Below are positions 28,530 to 45,019 of a DNA stretch of 64,000 nucleotides, piece after piece. This DNA is from Candidatus Latescibacterota bacterium. GTDB lineage: Bacteria; Latescibacterota; UBA2968; GCA-2709665. Position 1 is the first letter of the stretch, and each line of letters starts with the position of its first letter. The position numbers were made by a program, and so were the translations under genes. The notes below the pieces were generated by a model. That model saw only the letters and a list, made by a program, of their open reading frames with translations, was not told the DNA's origin and did not search any database. The stretch spans positions 2,144,001 through 2,208,000 of the forward strand of contig OZ242358.1 of assembly GCA_965208835.1 (NCBI GenBank), given 5' to 3'.

Positions 28530-29954
28530 TTAAGAGGAGGCGATTACCCCTCCGCAGCCACCCTTGAGAGTGACCTCCAGCACCGTTTTTGACCGTTGGG
28601 TAACGGCCGTGGACTGCGCCGTACGTAAGCCGGCCACCCAGAGGATGACCTTCCCGTCCAGCAGCAGCGGGATTTCATCACGCAGCGGTCTGGGAATCTT
28701 GAGGTTGATAAACAGGTCGCTGACTTTTTGTGATCCACTCAGGCCGAGCGGCACGAGACGATCCGCACGGCGCCGGTTTCTGAGCGTCAGCCGACCGAAA
28801 ATCGCATCCCGATCGAAACAGGCGCGAAAAGGATTGGATGACAGATCGTCCTCTTGCACCTCGCTGGCCGGCCTGATCTTCGTCTCGACAAATGCGCCGA
28901 TTTCCGGGATTCCAGTGACACCGGGAACGGCCACTTCGGTCTCGAACGGTGGCGTCGGCCGACTCAGGATCAGCCACGGACTGGAATGATGAACGAAGAC
29001 ATCGGAACACACCTGAGCCGAGCCTGCAGGCGTCAGACGCAGACCTTCAATGCGGCTCACACTCTGTTCATCAAGGTCCCGTGCGCTGCCTCGAAGCCGA
29101 AAAAATGCCGTTTTGAATATCCGGCGCCGAAGTGCTATATGATAACCGAAAACGGCGGTTTCATCAAGAATTATTTTTCGTTTGCCCTCGTAATGCAGGG
29201 CCTCCTTATATGCCGATTCCGCCTGCAGGGCGAGCAGCTGATCTTCATCCCGGATGATCGCCGCGGACCTTGCAAGGGACGCCTCGATCGACGGGTTGTA
29301 TTCCGAGGCGATCTCCGGGAGAAGAAGATGCCGGATCCGGTTCCGGAGAAAGCGGGATTCAGAGTTGGATTCGTCATGACGCACGTTAAGGTTCCGGTGT
29401 TCGACATATGCCTGTATCTGTCTTCGGGAGACCGCCAGGAGCGGGCGGATCCAGATCCCGTCGCGGATCGGCCTGATCCCGCTGAGCCCGGTCGGACCGG
29501 CGCCACGAATCAGGCGCATCAATACGGTTTCAGCCTGATCGCTGCGGGTATGCCCCAATGCGATGCGGGAGGCGCCGGTATCTCGCATTACCTCATTGAG
29601 AAACTCCAGGCGTGCATCACGCGCCGCCGCTTCCGGAGAGCCTGCCGTGGATACGGTCGTGCTGTCAGAGAAACACGGCAGGTCCAAGGTCGCGGCGAGG
29701 TCCATCACGAATTGCTGGTCTTCATCGGATGCGGGACCTCGCAGACGATGGTTGAGATGGGCGACATAAAGCGCGATATCGACAGCTTCACGCAGCCTGA
29801 CCAGCAGATCCAGGAGCGATACCGAATCCGGCCCTCCGGAAACACCTATCACAATCCCGTCACCTGGCTCGATCATGTCGTGCCGGTCGATGTACGATTG
29901 AACCGCTGAAAGCAGGTCGGGTGTACTGGAATTGTTGCGAGGATTTGGTTTCAT
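28530..29954 (-). CDS. tilS: tRNA(Ile)-lysidine synthetase
   Basis: SGGPDS PP-loop, [27 protein letters not shown] and C-terminal TilS_C domain. Confidence 0.96.
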
Positions 29955-30491
29955 GGGGTATAATCCGCGTTATCAGAGACCCAATGGAATGTCCTTTTTA
30001 ACCTTAATTCCGCAAAAACCGCAACGCGGCACCGCGACGAAACTTCCCGAAACGGGCCGAAATGGCTTTCAGGAAGGACGTTTTTTCTGTTCGCGTCCAG
30101 TGACCTGGTGTATCCTGGTAATCCGCAGTCTAATCGCCTTTATTAACTAGCACATATTCGAATTAACGTCCCCGAAAAATGACGAATCAAGGTTAAAACT
30201 GACTCTAGCGCGGCTGGTAGCGACCGCTATAGGTCTACGGACAAAGATTACCAGTCTGTCGGCGTTTCCACAACTGCATTCAATATGATTAACGCCCAGC
30301 GATTTACACCACTGCATGGGTTGAGAATCTGACGTCGGCAAATGTCCGAAGCCAGGGTTGACTCTTAGACGCATGAGAACTCGGCTCGGTTTCTGAAAAC
30401 CGGCTTCGTCGGGTCGAATTAAAAGTCTGATTATCAATTATATAGCCCAACTGAACAGAAAATGATCCATGCACGCGTTCAGGCGGGAAAT

Positions 30492-30523
30492 GAAAAGACA
30501 CGCCTGAATCAGCGTGTCTTTTC
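30492..30523 (-). terminator. Terminator of the redox operon
   Basis: 12-bp stem GAAAAGACACGC / GCGTGTCTTTTC, 24 nt past the stop at 30548, with a U-rich tail on the minus strand. Confidence 0.65.
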
Positions 30524-30547
30524 TGCGCCCATTTACTCTGCGCGAAA

Positions 30548-31846
30548 TCAGGGTACGCTTTTGCCGAAGTTTCTTGCGAATTCCAGAAAGTCCGCGAAGT
30601 CGACCAGTCCGCTCCCGTCCAGGTCGAAGGTCGGGTTGTCGGAGTTGAAGGCCTGGGCGAAGGCAATGAAGTCGACGAAATCGATTTTCCCGTCACCATC
30701 GAAGTCGGCACGGGCATTGACGGAGACAACGATCGCCGTTCCGGAAATCGCGACCGTGACATTTTTGTTTTCCGGATCATCGCTGGAAATGGTAATGGTG
30801 CCGGAGAAAGGTCCCCCCACCGCGGGCGTGAAGGTGATATCGACGGTTGCACTGTCACCCGGCGCGACCGTAAGCTCCTCCAGGCTGAACGTGATGCCCT
30901 CGAGGTCGGACTCCAGGTTCGTGATGCTGAGGTCTTTCCCTCCTGTGTTTTTCACGACGAGGGTAAGGGTCCGGGACTCATTTACCGCAACGTGCCCGCC
31001 AAAGTCGAGTATTGTAACAGGTAAGTTGATTGTGGGCGGCTGCACGATGGCTGCGATTCCGGAAATCGAGACCGTGACATTTCCGTTTTCAGGGTCATCG
31101 CTTGAAATGGTAATCGTGCCGGAGAAAGGACCGCCCTCCGCGGGCGTGAAGGTGATATCGACGGTTGCGCTGTCACCCGGTGCGACCGTGAGCTCCGTCA
31201 GGCTGAACGTGACGCCCTCGAGGTCTGACGCCAGGTTCGTAATGCTGAGGTCTTCTCCACCGGTGTTCTTCACGACGAGGGTAACGGTCCTGGTTTCGCC
31301 GGCCGGAAGGTCCTCGCCGAAGTCGAGCGAGGTACTGGGAAGGTTGATCGCGGGAGGCGCGACGGCCAGCAACTCCCGGATTCTCGCCGCCGCGGCGCTG
31401 AGACCCGAAGCGCCGACCCCGATGTGACGGACGATCCCTTCCCGGTCCGCGACCAGCAAAGTGTGAGTACCCCGCGTCCTCTGAATCCCCCCAGCCTGCA
31501 ACAGCAGGGGAAATGTGATCGTTGTTGCGGCTCGAAAGCCTTCCAGTTGCGACTTGCTGCCATTATAAATATCAAGCCCCAGGACCGTTACGTCATCGTT
31601 CTGGAACGCCTTCCAGATCTGCTGCTCGATGGACGGACCCGCCGCCCGGCAGGTGGGTCAGTTGTGGCCCAGGTAATAGAGAACCAAAACTTCACCCTTG
31701 TAGTCGGCCGGACTGTGTTTGTTGCCGTTTAGATCTTCTAACGAGAAGGCGGGCACAGCGTCACCTTCTTTCTGGGCCTCCGCAGGCAACGGCAGGTTGA
31801 GTCCGACGAGCAGCAGGAACACAAGGCATGTGGCGATTCGACGCAT
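30548..31846 (-). CDS. Putative secreted selenoprotein: AhpC/TSA-redoxin domain (UxxC) + two Ig-like repeats + dockerin-like domain (432 aa with Sec readthrough)
   Basis: AAAGGAGG RBS, signal peptide, PAFSLEDLNG...VLVLYYLGHN, then TGA (31658-31660) followed in frame by PTCRAAGPSIEQQIW...TFPLL and continuing without another stop into the 317-aa ORF. Confidence 0.85.
30740..31357 (-). repeat. Tandem duplication of a 300-bp Ig-like (ASH/choice-of-anchor D-like) domain
   Basis: 31058-31357 and 30740-31039 encode 100-aa units differing at 18 positions (manual count). Confidence 0.9.
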
Positions 31847-31879
31847 TGAAATCCTCCTTTATGAGAGTTGCGGTTTGCG

Positions 31880-33463
31880 TCAGAAATGGGTCTTAAGACG
31901 CATTTCAAGTCCATTGAACGGCAACACCTGATAGCATGTTCCCGAAGTACATGCGGCGCCACCGCGCCTGCGTCCGGCGAAGACGAGGGCTTCGTATCGT
32001 TCGAGAAAGCCGACGTTCAGGTTGACCGCCAGCCAGGAGCGCGTTCCGGTCTCGACCCGGTCCGGCGTCTTGACATCGTCCACTTCAAACGGATCGCTTG
32101 TGCGATCCAGGACGAGTGCGGCACCCACGCCGGAGCGATGCTGGTAGGAAAACTGGGTAAAGACATCCCAGAACACCGGCTCGTTTCGGGGATGCCTGGC
32201 CGCGTGACGGACCTGCAGATCAAAACCCAGGACAGACCCTCCGGGTGTATTGGATTCGGCCCCCACGCCGCCGATTCGGTGCTTTCCGATCCCCTTCAAT
32301 TCATCTTTTCCCCAATCGATGAAGACGGTCGACGTCACGCTGTGTCCCCCCGCCAGCGGAGGCAGTTCGACGTCCACGCCCAGATACCGCTCATTGAAGG
32401 TCGTTGAAAAGCCGGGCACCAGTTCGTTTTTTCCCTTGCTGATGTTTGCCGTCAGCGTGCCCAGTCCGAATATCGAATACGTAGCTTCCACCTGATAGCC
32501 CGCTTCTGCATCGGCAATCAGGGCATGGGTGGACCGGTTGAGCAGGACCGCCGCGTGTTCGCGAACCAGAGATGGGGGATCGTTGAAACTGAAGGCGAAA
32601 TTTTCGTAGTCCTTGTATTCCAGGCTGAGACCCAGGTTGGAAATGCCGGCGTTTGCCGAAAGATACAACGCGTTGCCGTCCACGTGCACGTCATTCAGAC
32701 CGGCGTACTCCGCGTACACGGTCGCATACCCGTCCTGAAGGCCTGATGCTTCGATAGCAGGCGTGATGTCGAGTTCCAGAAATCCCGACCATGTCCGCGT
32801 CGAGTCAAACCTGGAGGCGTGATGGCTGACGGCCGTGATGCCGGTCTTGATTCGGTTGCTAGGCCGCAGCGAGACCTCGCCTCCTAGAAGCCAGTTGTCA
32901 CGCCGCGGTAGGTCCCGAAGCGGATTACCCACCCGCACCGCGGGCGGAATATCACTTATTACGGGGCGGCCGACCAGGGCTTTTGCCTCGGACCGAGGTC
33001 CGGCCCAGGTGGCCATGCCACCCTCGAGGTCCCGTGACGGCGAATAGCGGCGCCGGTATTGCCCGCTTTCCAGAATGACCCCAGGTAGATCGAACGCCCT
33101 GAGCGTGATACCGCGGCCCAGGATGGCATAGTAGTTGCCCGCAACCAGCTCGACCGGTCCCCGGGTCCAGCGCAGGTGTTTCTGTGATATGTGTACGACC
33201 TGGTATTCAACCTGCGACAACGGCGAGCCGGGTGCGATACTGCGCCATGCGTTGAAGACTTCCGCTCGAAGTCCGGCCTGCAGACCGTGCCGTGTGTAGT
33301 CGACGTCGAGTTGCTCATAAAGTGATGAAACCGCCAGCGAGTCCGCTCCCGGTACGCGTCCCCGCTGGACTTCGGTCAGGCTGGATGCGGTCACCTGCGC
33401 TCCCGCCGGTTTCTCCGTCGGCAGCAGAAGGAGCATTATCAGGCTATTGATCAGCGCTCGCAT
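31880..33463 (-). CDS. DUF6029-like outer-membrane beta-barrel protein
   Basis: Signal peptide, AGNYYAILGRGITLR, LEYKDY.NF, FNDPPSLVREH, C-terminal GRRRGGAACTSGTCYQVLPFNG...F; family recalled from motifs, not searched. Confidence 0.75.
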   Translation of the reverse strand: MRALINSLIMLLLLPTEKPAGAQVTASSLTEVQRGRVPGADSLAVSSLYEQLDVDYTRHGLQAGLRAEVFNAWRSIAPGSPLSQVEYQVVHISQKHLRWTRGPVELVAGNYYAILGRGITLRAFDLPGVILESGQYRRRYSPSRDLEGGMATWAGPRSEAKALVGRPVISDIPPAVRVGNPLRDLPRRDNWLLGGEVSLRPSNRIKTGITAVSHHASRFDSTRTWSGFLELDITPAIEASGLQDGYATVYAEYAGLNDVHVDGNALYLSANAGISNLGLSLEYKDYENFAFSFNDPPSLVREHAAVLLNRSTHALIADAEAGYQVEATYSIFGLGTLTANISKGKNELVPGFSTTFNERYLGVDVELPPLAGGHSVTSTVFIDWGKDELKGIGKHRIGGVGAESNTPGGSVLGFDLQVRHAARHPRNEPVFWDVFTQFSYQHRSGVGAALVLDRTSDPFEVDDVKTPDRVETGTRSWLAVNLNVGFLERYEALVFAGRRRGGAACTSGTCYQVLPFNGLEMRLKTHF

Positions 33464-33977
33464 CAGTCTTCGCCTCGACGTCGGCATCGGGAAAAAGCGC
33501 TTCGACGGCAGCCAGTAACACTTCGGCGTTTTTCGAATTGTATCCGACCTGCCGCAACGCGATTTCACCATCCGGTGTGATCAGCAGCGTCGTCGGAAGT
33601 ACGTTCACCTGCATTCGCCTCATCACCGCGCTGTCCGAGTCGAGGGCGATCGGGAAACTGACCTTTCGCGCCCTGAGAAAGGGTTTCACCCGGTTCTGTC
33701 CGCGCGGACCGTCCACGTTCACGCCAAGAACCGTGAGTCCGGACTTGCCGTACTTCTCGTGAATCTTCTGGAGCTTGGGCATTGCCTTGACGCAGGGTTT
33801 GCAGTAGGTCGCCCAGAAATCCAAAAGCACCGGACCCCTTGCCAGCAGGGCCTTCAGGTTGACCCGTTCGCCCCGCAGGTTCCGGAGGTTGAAGTCGGGG
33901 GCCGAGGCGGCGTTCAGAGTCGCTGCACCCAGGAATATGGAGGCGGCAAGTGCCGCCGATTGAAAGATCGATTTCAT
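33444..33977 (-). CDS. TlpA/ResA-family thiol-disulfide oxidoreductase (exported)
   Basis: Signal peptide, APDFNL, LDFWATYCKPC and LPTTLLI; 3' end overlaps the start of the barrel gene. Confidence 0.92.
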   Translation of the reverse strand: MKSIFQSAALAASIFLGAATLNAASAPDFNLRNLRGERVNLKALLARGPVLLDFWATYCKPCVKAMPKLQKIHEKYGKSGLTVLGVNVDGPRGQNRVKPFLRARKVSFPIALDSDSAVMRRMQVNVLPTTLLITPDGEIALRQVGYNSKNAEVLLAAVEALFPDADVEAKTDASADQ

Positions 33978-39661: not shown

Positions 39662-41224
<1,563 letters not shown>

Positions 41225-41333
41225 GGGAGACACGGCATAACGTCATTTATGACGGTTGTGTCTACTCTAAGGTCAATTACCGTTGGGACTCTCATGCACG
41301 TTATTTGATTGTTGAAGGGCCACGGCGGATTTG

Positions 41334-41410
<77 letters not shown>

Positions 41411-41431
41411 AAGAATATTCTCGCATTTTCC

Positions 41432-41507
41432 GGGGATATAGCTCAGCTGGGAGAGCGCAGCCTTTGCAAGGCTGAGGTCACCGGTTCGATCCCGGTTATC
41501 TCCACCA
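41432..41507 (+). tRNA. tRNA-Ala(TGC)
   Basis: GGGGATA...TATCTCC-ACCA with a G3-U70 pair, anticodon loop TTTGCAA. Confidence 0.97.
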
Positions 41508-41542
41508 AAGACACAAGAAAACCGGGTGACGCGAGTCCCCGT

Positions 41543-41555
41543 TGTTCTTTGACAA
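41543..41555 (+). promoter_or_regulatory. boxA element (spacer)
   Basis: TGTTCTTTGACAA downstream of tRNA-Ala. Confidence 0.7.
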
Positions 41556-41788
41556 CCGAATACGGAACATGAAAGCCCATATGGATCGGTTTATTTCCAT
41601 ATGGACTTTCTGGGTATGCTGCAATTTAGCATAGCCGATCTCGTTCACTAAGCTGTCTGAAAGCCCGTTTTCAGCCTGAGAGGGCAGCGGAGATCTTTAC
41701 CGTCTGCCTTGCTCAAGGCGCATTGAAACCGGGGACAGCTTCCGTGGATTGGGCAGAACACACGTGTGATCTGCCGGGAACCTGTTTT

Positions 41789-44821
<3,033 letters not shown>

Positions 44822-44901
44822 ATTAATGGTTTCTCGGCGGATCGTGCGTGCGTTTTGTTTGCAGCGAGATCCTGTTCCGTATTCGGTTGTCCGTTTTGTT
44901 T

Positions 44902-45019
<118 letters not shown>

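Follow-up and report, generated by a model that had tools for sequence, protein, structure and literature searches.

Several thioredoxin-fold families in which selenocysteine (Sec, U) takes the first place of a UxxC motif have already been described. Table 1 of PMC13188914 lists a Prx-like thiol:disulfide oxidoreductase (PF00578), a thiol-disulfide isomerase-like family (cd02966) and a Redoxin family (PF08534), and 21 UXXC Prx-like sequences come from the Sargasso Sea data (PMC1088965). Here we describe a related gene from a 64,000-nucleotide (nt) stretch of a Candidatus Latescibacterota bacterium (assembly GCA_965208835.1, contig OZ242358.1, positions 2,144,001 to 2,208,000 of the forward strand), which we call the window and number from its first letter. 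The gene appears there as two minus-strand open reading frames (ORFs), 31658..31846 (62 amino acids) and 30548..31501 (317 amino acids). We put the probability that they are one gene for a secreted selenoprotein at about 0.9; judged from sequence comparison, the TGA that splits the gene is almost certainly read as Sec.

Both ORFs lie in one frame, and the read-through translation contains a single TGA between them and no TAA or TAG. With TGA taken as U, the frame stays open for 432 codons from the ATG at 31846. The internal TGA is codon 63 (31660-31658), in the context ...VLVLYYLGHN-U-PTC-RAAGPSIEQQ..., and the true stop of the gene is also a TGA (30550-30548), with a TAA four codons later. 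The Shine–Dalgarno sequence AAAGGAGGA (31860-31852) stands 5 nt upstream of the ATG. An earlier note on this DNA had claimed two in-frame ORFs one TGA apart, a U-P-T-C directly after VLVLYYLGHN and a strong ribosome-binding site, and all of this agrees with the exact ORFs, the read-through sequence and the position of the Shine–Dalgarno sequence. The features of the gene are as follows.

30548..31846, minus strand: proposed whole selenoprotein gene, 432 codons plus the terminal TGA at 30550-30548 (read-through translation, flanking Pfam domains, frame of the orthologues)
31852..31860, minus strand: Shine–Dalgarno sequence, 5 nt before the ATG at 31846 (direct reading)
31775..31846, minus strand: predicted signal peptide of the general secretory (Sec) type, residues 1-24, with an AEA/Q cleavage site (sequence features; similar hydrophobic N-termini in homologues)
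31406..31771, minus strand: TlpA/ResA-like AhpC/TSA redoxin domain, residues 26-147 (Pfam, AlphaFold2, Foldseek, profile match to PDB)
31658..31660, minus strand: in-frame TGA, codon 63, predicted Sec, first position of U-P-T-C (same column in 62 of 67 copies read)
31651-31649, minus strand: C66, the second redox residue (U-P-T-C motif)
31631..31645, minus strand: hairpin resembling a Sec insertion sequence (SECIS), stem nt 18-21 with 26-29, GGUC loop nt 22-25
31058..31366, minus strand: immunoglobulin (Ig)-like domain 1, of the choice-of-anchor D / DUF1573 / HYDIN-VesB type, residues about 161-263 (Pfam, NCBIfam)
30740..31036, minus strand: Ig-like domain 2, residues about 271-369 (Pfam, NCBIfam)
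30551..30730, minus strand: dockerin-like tail, two DxDGxGxxDFxDF loop-helix repeats, residues 373-432 (EF-hand_1; Dockerin_1 below its cut-off)

The genome has the equipment to insert Sec. A transfer RNA (tRNA) for Sec reaches 73.4 bits, where the gathering score is 47, and is called by ARAGORN as tRNA-SeC with anticodon tca; selB (361 bits), selA (564 bits) and selD (359 bits) all exceed their curated cut-offs, and selD itself holds one in-frame TGA. The genes for tRNA-Sec, SelB and SelA cluster near 3.536-3.540 Mb, and selD is at 4.40 Mb. Among the 48 tRNAs of the genome, only tRNA-SeC has the anticodon tca, and tRNA-Trp carries the normal cca. The earlier note had proposed a search for this machinery, and selA, selB, selD and a single tRNA-Sec are indeed all there.

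The TGA is conserved far beyond this genome. In a six-frame search of 41 genomes (that of the window included), each of the 14 other genomes of the genus yielded an orthologue with one TGA (69-77% protein identity); when the loci were read, this TGA fell in one and the same column, giving UPTC, in 14 of 14. All 14 also terminate with TGA, which therefore works as a stop codon in these organisms. From 40 loci of two families we read 49 copies of the redoxin domain, 47 of them with U-x-x-C (UPTC, UDLC, UTIC, USVC, UGTC, UHLC and others) and 2 with CPVC. A further 16 loci, from more distant families and including three survey matches chosen deliberately for having no TGA, gave 18 copies: 15 with UxxC in the same column and 3 with CAPC or CKYC. 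Column 63 is therefore U in 62 of the 67 copies read residue by residue, Cys in 5 and Trp in none. The earlier note had named Cys/TGA pairs as what to look for in this column, and Trp as a sign of a nonsense mutation; the homologues provide the former (CPVC, CAPC, CKYC) and never the latter.

When 151 genomes drawn from across the phylum were searched with a profile, the redoxin family turned up in 85. All 85 fall into four families within a single class (f1, 17 of 18; f2, 29 of 30; f3, 37 of 64; f4, 1 of 2; the genome of the window not counted), and the same search gave no match in the 36 genomes of ten other families. Among the 139 survey matches listed, 134 have one TGA, 4 have none and 1 has a TAA. 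Conservation of the protein past the TGA holds down to 29% identity. The alignment shows no exception at U/C63 or C66, and conservation of at least 90% at G70, P71 and P113. A sequencing or assembly error, the other concern of the earlier note, finds no backing in contigs assembled from runs of three studies: they span 31658-31660, and none of the differences listed falls there; one of the covering contigs belongs to a strain with 35 differences outside the TGA. Among the runs listed as containing this stretch, none is an RNA run. Sec, as predicted from these comparisons, is the rule for this redoxin family across the class.

Two further observations concern the copies themselves. The base before the Sec UGA (31661 in the window) is C in 96% of 46 distinct copies, whereas the residue encoded by that codon is only 63% conserved, and a C preceding the UGA may be a context preference for Sec decoding. 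Four genomes of the genus (G002, G004, G009 and G011) carry a second, tandem Sec paralogue with UDLC or UNLC.

Directly past the UGA lies a short hairpin that we regard as SECIS-like. Counting the U of UGA as nt 1, nt 18-21 pair with nt 26-29 (GGCG/CGUC, 4 base pairs (bp)) under an apical GGUC loop (nt 22-25). At 18 nt past the UGA, this loop is within the 16-37 nt that PMC10778597 gives for the apical loop of bacterial SECIS elements. Across 42 distinct sequences 91.7% of stem cells are paired; with the partners slid, the figure is 36-54% (at most 53.6%). The score for covariation is 0.255 against at most 0.122, and none of 500 shuffles reached the observed pairing or covariation. Pair 18-29 is GC in 32 sequences, CG in 3 and GU in 2, and pair 19-28 is GU in 17, AU in 12 and GC in 9; an optional G16-C30 pair, which leaves C17 bulged, forms in only 25 of 42. 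Another register, preferred by ViennaRNA (14-19/25-30, with a CGGGU loop), has 65.9% of its cells paired, and we prefer the register with the GGUC loop.

Because the hairpin encodes a conserved Gly-Pro, we also examined synonymous sites. The top codon is used at codons +6, +7 and +8 in 100%, 95% and 91% of 46 copies, whereas its use at 16 other conserved codons averages 51% and does not exceed 79%. In the distant family f3 the stems differ (for example, UCGCGG-AGG-CCGCGA) and encode other residues, yet occupy the same position. A count that is free of register (a perfect stem of at least 5 bp, with the loop starting at nt 17-28) finds such a stem in 56 of 57 distinct Sec copies and in 39 of 147 control windows from the same genes; for stems of at least 6 bp the counts are 40 of 57 and 16 of 147. 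The selD of this genome, itself a selenoprotein of known kind, has the same loop at the same distance (CAGUCC-GGUC-GGACUG, loop at nt 21-24 past its UGA). At the Sec TGAs of the family, the four pairs are present in 37 of 47 and GGUC in 42 of 47, with U24 of the loop replaced by A in 2 of 47, whereas none of 25 terminal TGA stops of the family has the four pairs or the GGUC loop.

A strict scan of the genome for a TGA followed by a 4-bp stem and a GGTC loop returned 46 sites, among which only this gene and selD stand out; the remainder mostly resemble off-frame noise, and the scan is no selenoprotein finder. Two of its sites outside the window, C1:2082005 (minus strand) and C1:3882026 (minus strand), have open frames of 244 and 160 codons past the TGA and might be further selenoprotein candidates.

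The domain around codon 63 is TlpA/ResA-like, with a thioredoxin fold, U63 in the CxxC position and a cis-proline loop. Two Pfam models span the TGA: AhpC-TSA (PF00578; residues 28-121, 48.4 bits, cut-off 26) and Redoxin (PF08534; residues 26-147, 38 bits, cut-off 26.6). AhpC-TSA also matches 15 of the 16 homologues scanned at E ≤ 1e-5. An AlphaFold2 model built on a 38-sequence alignment (predicted local distance difference test (pLDDT) 88, predicted template modelling score 0.80) has strand 53-59 leading into helix 64-81, and places U63 at the N-terminus of that helix, which is the CxxC position. The top Foldseek matches are 2ls5, ResA and 3kcm (E about 1e-12, template modelling (TM) scores of 0.72-0.85, and 0.82-0.85 for ResA). 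Matches of the profile to PDB begin at E 1.8e-17 (2ls5) and extend to about 1e-10; the profile alignment sets U63 on the first Cys of WCxxC in solved TlpA-like proteins. P113, conserved at 90% or more, is in the cis-proline position. Thus the thioredoxin fold does continue past the TGA, as the earlier note had read it, with the model and the ResA matches in agreement.

Two narrower assignments were rejected. ResA proper (NCBIfam NF002854) scores 38.3 bits against a cut-off of 170. Peroxiredoxin proper does not fit residues 56-63 (LYYLGHNU), which have L rather than Pro at -7 and the invariant G60 rather than Thr or Ser at -3; the active-site motif is of the UxxC dithiol type.

Beyond the redoxin domain the protein has the make-up of an exported, multidomain enzyme. 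The N-terminus consists of MRR, a hydrophobic run and AEA/Q, and homologues likewise begin with hydrophobic stretches; we infer that it is a signal peptide of the general secretory type. Two Ig-like domains of the HYDIN/VesB/DUF1573 type, which Pfam sets at residues about 165-263 and 271-369, follow the redoxin domain; the choice-of-anchor D model (NCBIfam NF012200) covers them in two stretches with 95.7 bits (cut-off 45), which bears out the Ig repeats of the earlier note. The last 60 residues form two loop-helix repeats that match EF-hand_1 at 36.3 bits (cut-off 25.4). This tail module has 81 matches in the genome, which also has three cohesin matches over the cut-off and one DsbD-type protein. 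Multidomain homologues that we tested repeat the layout of signal peptide, UxxC redoxin, 1-5 Ig-like domains and tail.

Places in this genome (G000) that bear the tail include gene clusters (for example, C1:3599102, 5133327-5136950 and 4062547-4096726), and it is found as well in two large cohesin-bearing ORFs, C1:4917220 and C1:4927615. The number of Ig-like repeats varies (30630-31057 in the window), with one or two in orthologues of the genus and up to five in f2, and a strain contig (run X7) lacks one repeat.

Further away, an exhaustive profile search of public proteins returned 91 cluster representatives at E ≤ 1e-30. Two Cys relatives, P0030 (CPVC) and P0038 (CAPC), have the architecture described here with CxxC instead of UxxC; the layout that the earlier note called unusual is indeed so, but it is not unique. 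In the other five representatives tested (P0034, P0041, P0026, P0146 and P0168), a type A sorting domain of the type IX secretion system (T9SS) is over its cut-off in 5 of 5; this larger Cys group has a T9SS tail where our gene has the Ig-like domains and the dockerin-like tail. All these Cys relatives have signal peptides and a C-terminal module for export or anchoring. That such modules recur in this redoxin clade speaks for work beyond the cytoplasm, perhaps on the cell surface, in keeping with the secretion proposed in the earlier note.

Several results weigh against this account, most of them concerning the hairpin. It is short. RNAalifold predicts 0 pairs and no consensus structure for the 42-sequence alignment, and the stability of the hairpin does not exceed that of shuffled sequences (z = -0.83 for this gene; the mean for 57 copies is -0.92, and only 17 of them fall below -1.5). 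We found no SECIS or other relevant Rfam family in 31400-31900, in the whole window or in 29900-30600. Conservation of the hairpin could stem partly from the conserved G-P residues that it encodes. Nor is the hairpin confined to Sec copies, as two Cys copies, L045 (G020, CPVC) and L097 (G114, CKYC), retain it. Each of these adjoins a Sec paralogue, with the hairpin following a TGT or TGC codon, and they look like recent Sec/Cys switches with a leftover SECIS; other Cys copies (L042, L098) are without the hairpin. The tail also falls below the dockerin cut-offs, with 21.8 bits against 22.9 for Dockerin_1 (PF00404) and 26.1 against 29 for dockerin_GC. Of the dockerin-like tail claimed in the earlier note, the loop-helix repeats and the EF-hand_1 match thus stand, and the match to Dockerin_1 is just missed.

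The simplest alternative is a pseudogene, in which a nonsense mutation or an assembly error has broken a Cys-redoxin gene. A lone in-frame stop does divide the gene, and public gene callers treat it as broken. But all 14 genomes of the genus keep this TGA, as do 134 of the 139 survey matches from four families. The sequence past it is conserved, the contigs of three studies have no listed difference at the TGA, and no scattered non-homologous stops or frameshifts were seen in close relatives. The Cys homologues, moreover, use TGT or TGC, one base away from TGA, and yet TGA is the clear majority. We give this explanation almost no chance, and the earlier note, which had argued against a pseudogene, is upheld by the retention of the TGA across the genus and by the conserved downstream protein.

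If the UGA were instead a stop, the locus would yield a 62-residue peptide and a separate Ig-tail protein started at the internal TTG at 31501. An ORF with that start exists, and public annotation uses such starts. The start would, however, fall at residue 116, inside the redoxin fold, and the product, for all its Ig and dockerin-like modules of the export type, would lack a signal peptide. Conservation at the protein level runs through residues 64-115, C66 and the cis-proline P113 among them, which an untranslated spacer would not show. The public fragments begin at varied points (197-317 amino acids), which suggests that the start calls are arbitrary. Termination at codon 63 is accordingly very improbable. 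Much the same can be said of a reading of UGA as Cys or Trp, through near-cognate suppression or a reassigned code. Some bacteria do use codes in which TGA is a sense codon, and Cys would be chemically adequate at site 63. Set against this, TGA is a working stop, since it closes both this gene and the 14 orthologues from the genus; the anticodon tca occurs only in tRNA-SeC among 48 tRNAs, beside a tRNA-Trp with the normal cca; and the genome has the full set of selA, selB and selD as well as a SECIS-like hairpin in common with selD. We consider such decoding to have only a slight chance, and return to Sec at codon 63 as the reading on which the following rests.

The neighbourhood of the gene adds a candidate partner. 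Two features flank it.

31880..33571, minus strand: DUF6029 gene (probable outer-membrane beta-barrel), Pfam 56.9 bits, ending 33 nt before the redoxin ATG
30492..30523, minus strand: terminator-like 12-bp hairpin, 27 nt past the terminal TGA, kept in 10 of 11 genomes

The DUF6029 protein ends with a C-terminal aromatic residue after a segment of alternating residues. Its model, in which confidence is moderate (pLDDT 66), is all-beta with about 26 strands, and its likeness to outer-membrane barrels is no more than generic (TM 0.3-0.5); the protein is probably an outer-membrane beta-barrel. The gene stands directly upstream of the redoxin gene in 21 of the 40 loci: the full 15 that come from the genus, another five of f1 and a single one of f2. 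Beyond the redoxin stop, the 12-bp hairpin is present, with paired base changes, in 10 of 11 aligned genomes of the genus (the window included); a consensus terminator scan did not list it. Its position suggests a two-gene unit with DUF6029, and the two genes are probably co-transcribed.

Near the C-terminus of the DUF6029 protein, a Cys pair, C-T-S-G-T-C (31934-31951, minus strand), is invariant in 19 of 19 aligned sequences. The redoxin next door could use this pair as a substrate or partner site; the model is unreliable there, with pLDDT below 50 for the hairpin that holds the pair. Downstream of the redoxin gene is tilS. The intergenic region between the two contains a conserved block at about 30350-30405 (minus strand), found in 9 of the same 11 aligned genomes, with a small GGTTT-TCAG-AAACC hairpin; this block matches nothing in Rfam and may belong to the leader or promoter of tilS. 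Elsewhere in the window, at 39662-45019 on the plus strand, lies a complete ribosomal RNA operon (16S, tRNA-Ile, tRNA-Ala, 23S and 5S).

On the comparative evidence, we propose that a hairpin starting about 15 nt past UGA-63 would be bound by SelB carrying Sec-tRNA(Sec), so that UGA-63 would be decoded as Sec and translation would proceed. The 432-residue product, encoded probably in one unit with the upstream barrel gene, would then be exported by its signal peptide. The fold and the motif suggest that U63 and C66 would act as a selenenylsulfide or selenol-thiol pair that reduces or exchanges disulfides outside the cytoplasm. The two Ig-like domains may serve as a spacer, and the dockerin-like tail may anchor the enzyme, either on a scaffold that bears cohesins or on the cell envelope. 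What we say here of the final location, reductant and substrate of the redoxin, we infer. A bolder and, in our estimate, unlikely extension is that the Sec-redoxin on a scaffold of the cohesin-dockerin-like kind and the DUF6029 barrel would form a selenium-dependent module at or beyond the outer membrane, with CTSGTC as a dedicated substrate or relay. If true, this would be a cell-surface thiol/disulfide (or polysulfide/metalloid) system with no known counterpart, in which Sec is the default of the lineage.

This would be a large family, spread through the lineage, to add to the bacterial selenoproteome; it is present in 85 of the 151 sampled genomes of the phylum and often in several copies. 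Annotation pipelines miss or mislabel it, and a curated model would correct hundreds of records. The near-universal Sec and the few Cys reversions, some of which keep the hairpin, make up a natural series on the benefit of Sec over Cys in an exported CxxC enzyme. A very short GGUC-capped hairpin in common with selD may help to define what the SelB of this lineage recognizes. With its anchoring tail and its DUF6029 partner, the protein suggests that redox chemistry takes place on the cell surface in an uncultured group.

In public records the family is visible only in part. Word-index searches of public proteins (7 and 21 matches) returned only fragments from past the TGA, none of which spans more than 47% of the redoxin region. 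Those with a name are called 'choice-of-anchor D domain-containing protein', and the metagenome-assembled genomes of origin are titled Gemmatimonadota or Candidatus Latescibacteria. No curated selenoprotein model in NCBIfam covers the gene, and redoxin_TUGYCR (NF053656) was rejected at 16 bits against a cut-off of 100. A literature search of main texts found no dockerin-linked or Ig-linked form and nothing on a Latescibacterota family, although supplementary tables may list it, and no passage of the BSepDB paper matches.

Among characterized proteins, the closest are ResA and TlpA (Bacillus subtilis ResA, 1st9 and 1su9; Bacteroides thetaiotaomicron, 2ls5), which share the fold, a CxxC at the N-terminus of helix 1, the cis-proline and export. 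Our protein differs from them in having Sec for the first Cys and additional Ig-like and tail domains, in scoring 38 bits against the ResA cut-off of 170, and in the lack of cytochrome c maturation genes in its neighbourhood. As for the hairpin, the fdhF-type SECIS of Escherichia coli is likewise a short element inside the ORF, directly past the UGA, with a GGUC apical loop; its G23 and U24 have the same nucleotide numbers as here, and a base is bulged at 17. The element described here differs in that its conserved stem has only 4-5 bp and that conservation does not extend to the bulge and lower stem (25 of 42); in f3 both stem and loop are different.

The Ig-like domains resemble DUF1573, and one selenoprotein, OS_HP2/DUF1573 (NCBIfam NF041425), is known by that domain; the model scores 50.5 bits on our protein, short of its cut-off of 100. 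According to Table 1 of PMC13188914, OS_HP2 has its Sec within the DUF1573 domain, in a UGC motif, whereas Sec here is placed in the redoxin domain. The nearest relatives remain the UxxC selenoprotein families. As described in PMC13188914 and PMC1088965, they have in common with our gene the AhpC/TSA or Redoxin domain, Sec in the first place of UxxC, and Sec/Cys pairs together with SECIS elements. By contrast, the gene described here encodes an exported multidomain protein of 432 residues, of a family that has a dockerin-like tail after 1-5 Ig-like domains; the gene is paired with a DUF6029 gene, and Sec is near-universal in a whole class. We separate it from the catalogued families by their descriptions, and it may equal one of them. 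By the same descriptions, UxxC redoxins are a well-known kind of selenoprotein, and what may be new is the multidomain layout with its presumed anchor.

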